36,038 nt of DNA from a virus. The notes under the pieces are model-generated. The model worked only from the letters and a program-made list of their open reading frames with translations. It was not told where the DNA came from and did no database searches. Positions 13,705 through 28,552 of this stretch are shown in pieces. Position 1 is the stretch's first letter. The number at the start of each line of letters is the position of its first letter. The DNA is taken from the UHGV virus genome UHGV-0132372; one strand, 5' to 3'. The position numbers and the translations under genes are program-made.

Positions 13705-13871
13705 TTGACCAAAATCGAAGTTACGAACAAGAAAGCGTCGAGCGAGCTTTAACGTGCGCTAACTGCGGTCAGAAGCTGCATGTGCTGGAAGTTCACGTGT
13801 GTGAGCACTGCTGCGCAGAACTGATGAGCGATCCGAATAGCTCAATGTACGAGGAAGAAGACGATGAGTGA
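13701..13871 (+). CDS. ninF: NinF (GTG start)
   Basis: Not in the ORF track (56 aa); [49 protein letters not shown] matches lambda NinF; GTGA overlap with the ninE stop. Confidence 0.7.
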
Positions 13872-14373
13872 TGTTAAAGAAAAAGATATCCCCGGCTTTG
13901 AGGGTATATATAAAGTAACTGAAAATGGAGACATCATTTCATGCCGTAAATCAAAAAAATTATCTCATGGCATTAAACCAGGAGGATATGCATTTGTCGG
14001 TCTGTATCCAGGTGGCGGGAAAAGACCATCATATAAAATGGTTCACAGAATTGTTGCAGAAGTATTTATTGATAACCCAGATGGCAAACCGGAAGTTAAT
14101 CACAAGGATGGAAATAAACTTAATAATAAAGTTGAAAATCTTGAGTGGGTAACGCGAACAGAAAATGCGAAACATGGATTTGATTCCGGATTGCTTGTTC
14201 ATGGGTTTAATCATCACTTCTGCAAACTAACGCCAGAACAAGTGAAATCAATATATAAATCAAAAGGCAAATACAGAGATATAGCCAAAGAATTTGGTGT
14301 TTGTGCGCAGACAGTGTGCAACATAAAAAACAAATCAGCGTACCGACGTTTTTTGGAGGGGATTGATGTTTAG
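13864..14373 (+). CDS. HNH homing endonuclease (NUMOD4/HNH_3-type) inserted in the nin region
   Basis: IPGFEGIYKVTENG...VHRIVAEVF...NHKDGNKLNNKVENLEWVTRTEN; AT-rich compared with its flanks; paralogous to 26602..27186. Confidence 0.8.
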   Translation: MSDVKEKDIPGFEGIYKVTENGDIISCRKSKKLSHGIKPGGYAFVGLYPGGGKRPSYKMVHRIVAEVFIDNPDGKPEVNHKDGNKLNNKVENLEWVTRTENAKHGFDSGLLVHGFNHHFCKLTPEQVKSIYKSKGKYRDIAKEFGVCAQTVCNIKNKSAYRRFLEGIDV

Positions 14374-25820: not shown

Positions 25821-26009
25821 ATGGCACGAACAATGCTCTATAAGCCGGGCAACATGATCACCTGTGGTCAGTTTGCTGTCGATTACATCATTGTTGATGA
25901 CGAAGAAGTTAAATCTCACCTGAAAAAAGGCTGGGTAAAAACTCCTGAAGAAACCGCAACGAAGCAAAAAGTGGCTAAGGCGGAAGAAGATGGCGAAAAC
26001 GAAGGGTGA
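25821..26009 (+). CDS. small hypothetical protein (62 aa)
   Basis: GGAGA RBS before the ATG at 25821; overlaps the gp4 start region. Confidence 0.35.
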   Translation: MARTMLYKPGNMITCGQFAVDYIIVDDEEVKSHLKKGWVKTPEETATKQKVAKAEEDGENEG

Positions 26010-26451
26010 TCTCGTTCTTAAGGCTTTACGAAAAGCCGGGCTGTATTCCAATGCCACGTTGACAGATGCTGACCCTCAGGCAATTGAAGATGCCATTAAT
26101 GACCTCGAAGACATGATGGCAGCATGGCAGGCAAAAGGTATCGAGCTTGGGTATCAGTTTGCTGATACAGAAAACGGCATCATGCCGTTACCTGACGATG
26201 ATTCAGGTATCCCTGCATGGGCAAATGATGGCGTCGCTTTGAAACTCGCTGTGCAAGTGTGCATGGATAACGTCATTCAGCCGTCAGACGCTCTCCTTAC
26301 CGCTGCTGACAGTGCATATCAGACAATCTGTATCGCTTTAACCAAAATACCACCACTTGAGCGGCGAAATGACATGCCTCGCGGTAGTGGTAACAAAAGC
26401 GCGTTTACGTGGAATCGGTTTTACATCGAGAAAGATGATCCGAGTACGTGA
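25990..26451 (+). CDS. portal-closure / tail-accessory factor (P22 gp4-like)
   Basis: KTKGDLVLKALRKAGLYSNATLTDADPQAIEDAINDLEDMMAAW resembles the P22 gp4 N-terminus; gene order. Confidence 0.8.
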   Translation: MAKTKGDLVLKALRKAGLYSNATLTDADPQAIEDAINDLEDMMAAWQAKGIELGYQFADTENGIMPLPDDDSGIPAWANDGVALKLAVQVCMDNVIQPSDALLTAADSAYQTICIALTKIPPLERRNDMPRGSGNKSAFTWNRFYIEKDDPST

Positions 26452-26460
26452 GGTGAATAA

Positions 26461-26565
26461 ATGCCGATTCAGCAACTTCCGCTTATGAAAGGTGTCGGCA
26501 AAGACTTTCGAAACGCCGACTATATCGACTATCTGCCAGTGAATATGTTGGCAATTTTGATATAA
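26461..26565 (+). pseudogene. truncated 5' remnant of gene 10 (34 codons) upstream of the HNH insertion
   Basis: AGGTGA RBS; [31 protein letters not shown] then stop; same peptide as the start of the intact gene 10 at 27134 but with diverged codons. Confidence 0.6.
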
Positions 26566-26601
26566 TAAGTACATGAAAAATCGAAACTTTAAGGAGTAGA
26601 T

Positions 26602-27186
26602 ATGCTTTCTGAGAATGCTAAAGATATACCTGGATTTGAAGGTGTTTATGCCGTAACAGAAGATGGCAGGGTGCATTCTCACTCACGTGTTGTTAAGGCT
26701 GCGCATGGCAGCACGCAACTCAGAAAGGGGCGCTGGTTAAAGCCTAAAATAAATCAGGGAAGGGTGCTTTATAATATCGGAGCAAAATGGACTTTTGCCC
26801 ATCGAATCGTTGCAATGACATTCCTGCCAAATCCTGAAAACAAGCCTCAGGTAAATCATATTGATGGCAATCCACTCAATAATAACGTCAATAATCTTGA
26901 GTGGTGCACTCAAAGCGAAAACATCAAACATGCATACGCCACAGGATTAAAGAAACCAATCAAGTTTTTCGGAACCAAGCACCCAAAACACAAGTTGAGT
27001 GATGACGATGTTCTTGCAATCAAGTCATCAAAAGAAAGCTTGTCAGTAATTGCGGCTAAGTACGGGATATCTAAGACCTGGGCAAGTAGGCTAAAGCGTG
27101 ATGCTAACTGGGTTCATATAAAGGTTGATTCCAATGGCAATACAACAACTACCACTAATGAAGGGATTAGGGAAAAGTGCGGTTAA
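26602..27186 (+). CDS. HNH homing endonuclease (NUMOD4/HNH_3 with C-terminal HTH-like region)
   Basis: IPGFEGVYAVTEDG...AHRIVAMTF...NHIDGNPLNNNVNNLEWCTQSEN; AT-rich; 3' end overlaps the gene 10 start. Confidence 0.8.
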   Translation: MLSENAKDIPGFEGVYAVTEDGRVHSHSRVVKAAHGSTQLRKGRWLKPKINQGRVLYNIGAKWTFAHRIVAMTFLPNPENKPQVNHIDGNPLNNNVNNLEWCTQSENIKHAYATGLKKPIKFFGTKHPKHKLSDDDVLAIKSSKESLSVIAAKYGISKTWASRLKRDANWVHIKVDSNGNTTTTTNEGIREKCG

Positions 27187-28552
27187 TGCTGATTATATAG
27201 ACCAACTTCCAGTCAATCTTTTAGCTACGCCCAAGGAGGTGTTGAATTCATCGGGATATCTTCGCTCATTTCCGGGCATTGCCAAACGCTCTGATGTGAA
27301 CGGCGTATCTCGCGGAGTCGAGTACAACATGGCGCAGAATGCTGTTTATCGCGTGTGTGGTGGCAAACTGTACAAAGGAGAAAGTGAAGTCGGTGACGTC
27401 GCCGGAAGTGGTCGCGTATCAATGGCGCATGGTCGGACATCTCAGGCTGTAGGCGTTAATGGTCAACTGGTCGAGTATCGCTATGATGGCACGGTTAAAA
27501 CCGTCTCAAACTGGCCTACAGACAGCGGATTCACGCAGTATGAGTTAGGTTCGGTTCGTGACATTACTCGCTTACGTGGGCGTTATGCGTGGTCAAAAGA
27601 CGGTACTGATTCATGGTTCATCACTGACCCTGAAGACGAATCGCATCCTGACCGCTACAGTGCACAATATCGTGCAGAATCGCAGCCGGACGGCATCATC
27701 GGCATCGGAACATGGCGAGACTTCATCGTCTGCTTTGGTTCATCGACGATTGAATATTTCTCCCTGACTGGTGCAACCACCGTTGGTGCTGCTTTGTATG
27801 TCGCACAGCCATCGTTGATGGTGCAGAAAGGCATTGCAGGAACCTACTGCAAAACGCAGTTTTCTGATTCGTATGCGTTCATCAGCAATCCGGCAACAGG
27901 TGCGCCGTCTGTTTACATCATCGGATCCGGTCAGGTGTCACCAATCGCCAGCGCGAGCATTGAGAAAATCCTCCGCTCCTACACCGCGGATGAACTGGCT
28001 GATGGCGTGATGGAGTCTCTGCGATTTGATGCGCATGAACTGCTGATTATCCATCTTCCGCGCCATGTCCTCGTGTACGACGCATCTTCAAGCGCCAATG
28101 GTCCGCAATGGTGCGTACTGAAAACAGGACTGTATGACGATGTGTACCGCGCTATCGACTTCATTTACGAAGGCAATCAGATAACGTGCGGCGATAAGCT
28201 GGAATCCGTGACCGGGAAATTGCAGTTCGATATCAGCAGCCAGTACGACAAGCAGCAGGAACACCTGCTGTTTACTCCGTTGTTCAAAGCGGATAACGCC
28301 AGAGTGTTCGACCTTGAGGTTGAGTCGTCAACTGGCGTTGCGCAGTATGCTGACCGCCTGTTCCTCTCTGCAACCACTGACGGCATCAATTACGGACGTG
28401 AGCAGATGATTGAGCAGAATGAACCGTTCGTTTACGACAAACGCGTTTTGTGGAAGCGAGTCGGGCGCATCAGGAAAAATGTCGGCTTCAAATTGCGCGT
28501 TATCACGAAGTCACCTGTCACTCTTTCTGGCTGCCAGATAAGGATTGAGTAA
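27134..28552 (+). CDS. tail hub / head-completion protein (P22 gp10-like)
   Basis: Long collinear similarity to P22 gp10 as recalled (…[27 protein letters not shown]…SGCQIR.E); ATG at 27134 (the ORF track starts at TTG 27125). Confidence 0.85.

Follow-up and report, generated by a model that had tools for sequence, protein, structure and literature searches.

A putative free-standing homing-endonuclease cassette that carries a differently coded 5′ end of gene 10 in P22-like prophages

Introduction

Homing endonuclease genes found in essential phage genes are said to be accommodated in introns, in inteins or, rarely, in a split gene (PMC10448857). In the “intronless homing” of T4-like phages, free-standing endonuclease genes such as those of SegF, SegG and MobE have neither intron nor intein, carry their own translation signals and lie between genes; the enzyme cuts an allele that lacks its gene near the position of that gene, sequence differences protect the host allele, and homology is needed on both sides (PMC2988022). 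A free-standing HNH gene in an essential coding sequence is known from nrdA/mobE of the Aeromonas phage Aeh1, where, as summarized in PMC10448857 and PMC2988022, which cite the work, no intron or intein is involved, function is retained, and both halves of the gene are needed, the two polypeptides reassembling (“genes in pieces”). In fungal mitochondria, mORFs were first described for Allomyces macrogynus atp6 and later for Glomus (atp6, atp9, cox2, nad3), Rhizopus (atp9) and Mortierella (cox2); according to PMC3630166, an endonuclease open reading frame (ORF) travels there with a foreign gene terminus. Here we describe an HNH endonuclease gene in gene 10 (tail hub/packaged-DNA stabilisation protein) of a P22-like prophage (Lederbergvirus, CUS-3/Sf6-type), which constitutes a 36,038-nucleotide (nt) stretch of viral DNA (UHGV virus genome UHGV-0132372). 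This whole stretch is called the window, and its numbering is used throughout; the locus studied is 100% identical to the chromosome of E. coli MS 115-1.

Comparison with insert-free relatives makes it probable that window 26553–27253 is a free-standing HNH homing-endonuclease cassette that came to lie in gene 10 by replacing the 5′ end of the gene, and that it spreads by double-strand-break repair. Engineered home-and-rescue or recoded-rescue CRISPR drives likewise combine a nuclease cassette in an essential gene with a recoded, cleavage-immune copy of the disrupted part. Such drives are synthetic, RNA-guided and made for diploid eukaryotes, whereas the phage element is natural and would be protein-guided. 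PMC11432399 and PMC9240394 are reviews of engineered drives of this kind. Full-text literature searches returned no description of this element or of a phage equivalent; many subscription papers were out of reach, and this absence is no proof.

Results

The insert occupies one fixed point in gene 10

Uninterrupted alleles of gene 10 were found in phages CUS-3, vB_EcoP-720R6 (720R6) and P22 and in at least 120 IMG/VR contigs. Alignment with the alleles of CUS-3, 720R6 and P22 placed the insertion at a single point, after nt 92 of gene 10 and following ...AATATG(T/C)TGGC; in insert-free phages, this point lies inside a continuous 1419-nt ORF and not between genes. Two IMG/VR prophages, L094 with the insert and L238 without it, differed over about 7.3 kb only by the cassette and one other base. 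To the left, 0 mismatches were found in 3951 nt, gene-10 nt 1–92 included; in the functional gene-10 copy there were 45 differences, all in nt 4–120; and to the right, there was one mismatch in the next 3367 nt. This comparison therefore defines the unit as window 26553–27253, i.e., 701 nt in exchange for 28 nt of native sequence (nt 93–120, TACACCCAAAGAAATCCTGAACAGCAGC), 13 of which differ in the cassette version. The junctions were identical in 28 of 28 loci checked, and also in contig L315. Presence or absence at one fixed site in otherwise similar genomes, the pattern expected of a homing element, was observed. T4-like endonuclease genes are intergenic, whereas this cassette lies within an essential ORF that is continuous in insert-free phages, and it makes its own intergenic space by means of a duplicated gene start.

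We considered whether the target is an unusually conserved stretch. P22 and CUS-3 are 91% identical over nt 58–125, compared with 84% over gene 10 as a whole, and conservation is higher in several other stretches; the target is only mildly conserved, and no claim was drawn from it.

A divergent natural class of gene 10 (contigs L326, L337, L343, L345, L347 and L354; nt 58–130), 72% identical to CUS-3 and 77% to P22, has CCAATCAATATGTTGGCCACACCGAAAGAAGTCCTCAACTCATCGGG at the site and shares with the cassette version a Val codon position and the serine codons TCA TCG. This class may be naturally resistant or may be kin to the donor lineage.

Layout of the locus

The features of the locus, in window coordinates, are as follows.

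26461–26565, plus strand: remnant of the resident gene 10; native codons 1–31 followed by ILI and TAA; second TAA at 26566–26568
26534–26553, plus strand: inverted repeat TGCCAGTG..TGTTGGCA, found by consensus scan; ends exactly at the left junction
26553–27253, plus strand: putative mobile unit of 701 nt, in place of native gene-10 nt 93–120 (28 nt)
26558–26566, plus strand: perfect extended −10 motif TGATATAAT, read by eye; overlaps the stop codons of the remnant
26591–26596, plus strand: AAGGAG, perfect ribosome-binding site (RBS) for the HNH gene, whose ATG follows after 5 nt
26602–27186, plus strand: I-HmuI-like HNH homing endonuclease ORF, with NUMOD4, HNH_3 and a C-terminal helix-turn-helix-like region
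27121–27124, plus strand: AAGG, weak RBS of the functional gene 10, 9 nt upstream of its start
27134–27253, plus strand: putative rescue 5′ end, gene-10 codons 1–40 in other codons; part of the unit
27134–28552, plus strand: functional gene 10, a chimera of cassette codons 1–40 and resident codons 41–472
25990–26451: gene 4 (PF11650), upstream of the 34-codon ORF

The unit, situated within the late operon, comprises in-frame stop codons, an RBS, the HNH gene and gene-10 codons 1–40 in different codons. An earlier note on this DNA had described a 34-codon remnant with its own RBS that runs into a stop, an AT-rich HNH gene at 26602–27186 that is free-standing and inserted into gene 10, and a gene 10 that restarts at 27134 within the 3′ end of the HNH gene with a start conserved in protein and diverged in DNA. 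All of these elements were borne out: the insertion by the alignment and the L094/L238 pair above, and the others by the profile matches, base composition and codon comparisons given in the following sections.

The upstream ORF retains the native start of gene 10

Upstream of the remnant stands GAGGTG, the native Shine-Dalgarno sequence of gene 10. The ORF encodes 31 residues of the gene-10 product (gp10), with the native N-terminus MPIQQ, and then ILI; its stop codon is succeeded by the second TAA. Its match to Pfam PF11134 (Phage_stabilise; positions 1–28, E = 7e-11) shows that it is no chance ORF. In the alignment it is identical to uninterrupted alleles up to nt 92, and its polymorphisms are the standing polymorphisms of insert-free alleles, whereas the tail formed by ILI and the two stops is cassette sequence. 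In E. coli records it is labelled an incomplete pseudogene by PGAP.

Since the strong native RBS has been kept and the remnant ORF was intact in 30 of 30 loci, the 34-residue product might be a functional small protein, e.g., an assembly modulator derived from the gp10 N-terminus, instead of an inert scar or homology arm. We regard this as quite unlikely: over only 105 nt intactness carries little weight, the polymorphisms are merely those of the insert-free gene-10 5′ end, and the last residues and stops are supplied by the cassette. A small protein would in any case be compatible with a mobile cassette and would not replace that explanation.

The inverted repeat at 26534–26553 is native gene-10 sequence (TGCCAG...CTGGCA in P22) and extends up to the exact insertion point. 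Together with the following ATTTTGATAT, the T-rich start of the cassette, it received a terminator-like score in the consensus scan, which is an observation on sequence only. The repeat is a candidate for a role in the original illegitimate join or in limiting HNH expression. The motif TGATATAAT could, speculatively, be a promoter of the HNH gene itself; a two-hexamer promoter scan found nothing at the left junction, and TGATATAAT has no −35 element.

The inserted gene encodes an I-HmuI-like endonuclease

The ORF at 26602–27186, whose protein is WP_000947777.1, matched HNH_3 (PF13392; E = 9e-11, 41.7 bits, cut-off 24.8) and NUMOD4 (E = 3e-8, 34.1 bits, cut-off 23.4), and its closest solved relative was I-HmuI of Bacillus phage SPO1 (PDB 1U3E), aligned over residues 7–116 with E = 4.6e-8. 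The HNH residues N85, H86, N94, N95, N98, N107 and H110 are invariant among three paralogs. On this evidence we class the protein as an ordinary HNH homing endonuclease like I-HmuI. Its gene has a GC content of 0.42, compared with 0.52 in the rest of gene 10. All 30 loci examined had an intact ORF, in which 12 variable sites were synonymous and 7 non-synonymous, three of the latter in or just before a non-conserved tail; this pattern is consistent with purifying selection. The tail consists of the last ~19 residues, which are read through the gene-10 start, and the paralogs end before it, at W-V/R-H; ribosomes translating the HNH gene would therefore cross that start. The search of species-representative genomes for close relatives returned none, the best hit being 49% identical and from unrelated taxa, and among IMG/VR relatives there was a gap between a 98–100% group and 61%.

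The gene for I-HmuI itself lies in a group I intron, and the enzyme nicks DNA in a strand-specific manner. As it and its relatives are typically intron-encoded, and as joining 26552 to 27227 would restore the reading frame, window ~26553–27226 might be taken for a self-splicing group I intron that joins codons 1–31 to codon 32, making the downstream ATG copy irrelevant. This is highly improbable. Neither a group I intron nor any other relevant Rfam family was detected in 26300–27500, even at E ≤ 10; the remnant frame is closed by two stop codons right at the junction; the end of the insert is a complete, in-frame and protein-conserved copy of codons 1–31 that begins with ATG, needless for an intron; and the altered coding runs 27 nt past the supposed 3′ splice site. 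The endonuclease gene is a separate ORF with its own RBS and with stop codons at its bounds, and thus, unlike I-HmuI, appears to stand free of any self-splicing intron or intein, as do the T4-like genes.

Related endonuclease genes occupy other places in P22-like phages. One paralog, 54% identical, is situated between genes 10 and 26 and overlaps the start of the latter (L004 3130–3675, phage HZ41; L006 3024–3569; L114–L125); 17 complete E. coli genomes carry it, and in HZ41 the 3′ end of gene 10 beside it is diverged. Its RBS region and first ~47 codons are common to the gene-10 endonuclease (~87% nt identity) and the remainder is diverged, which suggests exchange of modules between endonuclease genes with different targets. 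A third paralog, 47% identical and with the same MLSENAKDI N-terminus, is found in other P22-like phages, where it separates the gene-23-like late regulator from the lysis genes (L127 4001–4519; also ST-35, N7 and L126–L131). Within the prophage studied here, a second HNH/NUMOD4 endonuclease gene (13864–14373, plus strand; 39% identical to the gene-10 endonuclease) lies in the nin-like early-right region and overlaps both neighbouring ORFs.

The functional gene 10 begins with a differently coded 5′ end

The gene 10 at 27134–28552 matched PF11134 over its full length (positions 1–469 of 469, E = 4e-297), overlaps the HNH ORF by 53 nt, and was intact in the 29 loci with a complete gene. Its predicted product begins with MAIQQ in place of the native MPIQQ. 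In Aeh1 both pieces of the gene are needed; here, the downstream ORF covers the whole family profile and the upstream piece, which duplicates codons 1–31, is redundant.

The two 93-nt 5′ copies share 24 of 31 residues and 60 of 93 nt; 16 of the 22 degenerate codons for identical residues are changed, and the longest identical run is 5 nt. Third-position GC was 0.35 in the recoded stretch, 0.39 in the HNH gene and 0.60 in the native 5′ end; the likeness of the first two therefore points to a common origin in a lower-GC relative and not to recoding in place. In a degenerate-codon search with a 13-residue peptide, the recoded N-terminus was encoded only in cassette-bearing contigs, 27 from IMG/VR and 7 from JGI metagenomes. 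The recoded end thus always occurs with the HNH gene, which argues that the two form a single unit. A word-indexed protein search with the 46-residue N-terminus gave only short native-type fragments.

These results modify the earlier note in three respects. It had limited the recoded duplicate to codons 1–31, which are indeed recoded, whereas the different coding extends to codon 40 (window 27253). It had taken the functional 5′ end for the resident copy after recoding; its low third-position GC, like that of the HNH gene, and its invariance together with that gene indicate instead that this end was imported with the unit, the resident end being the remnant. Its proposal that recoding protects from cleavage may apply to the altered nt 93–120 but fails for nt 1–92, whose native coding is still present in the remnant. 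The same arrangement lacking an HNH gene, which it had named as contrary evidence, was not seen among the 27 IMG/VR and 7 metagenome contigs encoding the recoded N-terminus.

According to PMC3630166, the fungal mORFs share this architecture: the foreign end is conserved in protein and diverged in DNA, and the displaced native end persists alongside, truncated or untranslated, and matches relatives without the insert. The fungal elements replace the 3′ end (C-terminus), often with the ORF fused in frame, whereas the phage element replaces the 5′ end (40 codons), restarts the gene inside the endonuclease ORF, encodes an HNH enzyme and resides in temperate phages with population data for repeated transfer. 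The resemblance would be one of architecture and not of descent.

In the public record of Salmonella phage UPF_BP1 (NC_047875; L001 2502–3283), gene 10 is started at an internal ATG (locus 3283, 1311 nt) and the remnant is unannotated. The phage was deposited as a complete phage genome; PMC4837284 (Bardina 2016) deals with UAB phages and not with UPF_BP1. We take UPF_BP1 to be a propagating isolate, and gene 10 is essential for P22 head completion; if so, gp10 made from the cassette start should be functional.

The cassette is rare but widely distributed

The complete structure, with identical junctions, was present in 18 of 5426 complete E. coli genomes. About 916 of these genomes have the 5′ region of gene 10, so that about 2% of gene-10 carriers hold the cassette. 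It was also found in 28 IMG/VR contigs, 7 metagenome contigs and UPF_BP1, and in an IMG/VR sample anchored elsewhere in gene 10 it occupied 4 of the 80 listed loci; all these frequencies are rough. Nothing but the odd look of a duplicated gene start could be cited for an artefact of assembly or sequencing, or for a tandem duplication peculiar to one strain; this reading is refuted by the identical junctions in independent collections and has practically no probability left.

Two copies differed from the others. In the metagenome contig L321 (905–2854), an IS21-family element with IstA- and IstB-like ORFs (340 and 260 aa) interrupts the HNH ORF near codon 25; this copy is decaying. That of strain ES5 is shorter by 1 nt, and its annotation divides the HNH gene into two ORFs.

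Population data point to repeated transfer

Among 28 aligned cassette loci, nucleotide diversity (pi) was 0.000–0.013 from 26561 to 27260, a trough that matches the cassette exactly. On the left, the halves of the remnant had values of 0.065 and 0.026, and from 27261 on the range was 0.04–0.10. The flanks were mixed between carriers and non-carriers: over gene-10 nt 121–1000, the mean pairwise distance was 0.063 within the insert-bearing group, 0.069 within the insert-free group and 0.066 from one group to the other, with the groups fully interleaved, and the variable sites were the same, with similar frequencies, in both. Shared polymorphism began on the left at nt 88, 5 nt from the junction (T:C 10:20 in cassette-bearing and 33:33 in cassette-free alleles), and on the right at nt 141–156, 21–36 nt from the cassette edge. 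The 3′ end of gene 4, represented by 200 nt of upstream sequence, fell into four unrelated types, each with both states (insert-bearing/insert-free: 16/22, 6/25, 6/17 and 2/1).

The hosts span two genera, E. coli and, through UPF_BP1, Salmonella. UPF_BP1 is 99.2% identical to P22 over 6.9 kb, up to gene-10 nt ~94, where the cassette follows; beyond it, genes 10–20 are ~82% identical to P22 and 91–95% to the E. coli type, so that the cassette sits exactly on a mosaic boundary. Nuclease genes at mosaic boundaries have been described in general terms (PMC10448857). Taken together, the population data indicate repeated horizontal transfer and not vertical descent alone.

The alternative is that a single ancient insertion, now passive, has been distributed by ordinary homologous recombination among P22-like prophages. 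These phages are strongly mosaic, the gene-4 type switches exactly at the gene boundary in insert-free phages too, the cassette is rare, and the L321 and ES5 copies have decayed. Random crossovers, however, would rarely fall so close on both sides in most lineages (flank linkage is gone 5 nt to the left and 20–36 nt to the right), and passive recombination fits poorly with the sharpness of the diversity trough, with an HNH ORF that is intact in all 30 loci and has an excess of synonymous changes, and with the L094/L238 pair, which, being alike except for the cassette, points to recent gain or loss. We therefore consider a passive insertion unlikely.

A second mosaic boundary was observed at the end of gene 10: in the cassette loci, diversity rose to 0.13–0.20 in the last ~340 nt of the gene (window 28211–28551) and was higher in gene 26. 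This boundary is close to the insertion place of the gene 10/26 paralog.

Discussion

A model for spread by break repair

The reading that we favour, a mobile cassette spread by double-strand-break repair, would operate in a cell that contains both an insert-bearing and an insert-free P22-like genome, i.e., a superinfected lysogen, a co-infected cell or a polylysogen. The enzyme would cut or nick gene 10 of the insert-free genome, within a target that takes in nt 93–120; the target must include this stretch because it is the sole native sequence absent from insert-bearing genomes, whereas native nt 1–92 persist in the remnant, where they presumably escape cutting. The left break end (gene-10 nt 1–92) would pair with the 92-nt remnant, which would act as the left homology arm, and the right break end with gene 10 from nt 121 onward, whereupon repair synthesis would copy the cassette with its stop codons, HNH gene and replacement start. 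A length of about 90 nt amply suffices for recombination by RecA or by phage systems of the Red or Erf type. Spread would be independent of homology in the highly mosaic gene 4, since gene 10 itself supplies the left arm. The insert-bearing genome would be immune, since it has nt 93–120 only in altered form, and as the two 5′ copies share no identical run of more than 5 nt, loss of the cassette by recombination between them is precluded. Linkage to flank markers is very short, which would fit break repair with little resection; in the case of UPF_BP1, where the recipient gene 10 was only 82% identical, the right-hand crossover would have travelled much further.

Several points weigh against this model. 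All of its support is comparative, mobility and cleavage having been deduced from sequences. I-HmuI-type enzymes nick rather than cut, which makes the initiating lesion uncertain, and free-standing endonucleases often cut away from their own gene, so that the target could exceed nt 93–120. At about 2% of the E. coli gene-10 carriers, the cassette is below expectation for an efficient drive. P22-like phages recombine into mosaics in general, and such exchange following a single insertion could account for some of the flank mixing. The IMG/VR contigs include near-duplicates (L001 and L111 are the same phage) and are not all independent, and the insert-free IMG/VR set, having been chosen by a pattern that overlaps the site, is silent on site conservation and was used for the flanks only. 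The RBS of gene 10 within the cassette is weak (AAGG), and an RNA structure that couples or masks the gene-10 start was not apparent, the fold of 27085–27200 being no better than shuffled sequence (z = −0.12). Finally, no donor was found: a distant blastn search of 27120–27262 against phages, aimed at the source of the recoded end, gave only the cassette-bearing UPF_BP1, and degenerate-codon searches of IMG/VR and JGI metagenomes, as well as the species-representative genomes, revealed no donor lineage.

As to origin, the endonuclease gene was probably once intergenic, directly upstream of gene 10 in a distantly related P22-like phage of lower GC content. Such an ancestral state is likely because the gene 10/26 paralog similarly overlaps the start of its downstream gene. 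The duplication would have arisen on its single capture, through an illegitimate join on the left, by a phage whose gene 4 was non-homologous.

A more far-reaching proposal, which we put forward tentatively and regard as doubtful, is that the recoded 5′ end is an adaptive and integral part of a natural “home-and-rescue” gene drive. It would permit residence inside an essential reading frame, confer immunity, prevent loss by repeat recombination and leave the gene start as the left arm, so that any P22-like phage could be invaded whatever its mosaic background. The extended −10 motif could give expression in the prophage, in which case the enzyme might cut gene 10 of superinfecting relatives and serve the lysogen as a weapon of interference.

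Implications

To our knowledge, gene-end replacement is otherwise known only from the 3′ ends of fungal mitochondrial genes. The cassette has practical consequences for annotation, as shown by the pseudogene label that PGAP gives to the remnant and by the internal ATG chosen for gene 10 of UPF_BP1, and it explains the sharp mosaic boundary in UPF_BP1, with P22 sequence on the left and E. coli-type sequence on the right. The host system is among the best for genetics: P22, Sf6, CUS-3 and HK620 have tail machines with solved structures, and P22-type genetics makes the cleavage site, the co-conversion length, the need for the 92-nt arm and the fitness cost directly testable. To introns, inteins and split genes, the element would add a fourth way in which a homing endonuclease gene can reside in an essential phage gene, namely replacement of the gene end by a differently coded copy, and it would provide a natural precedent for recoded-rescue gene drives.

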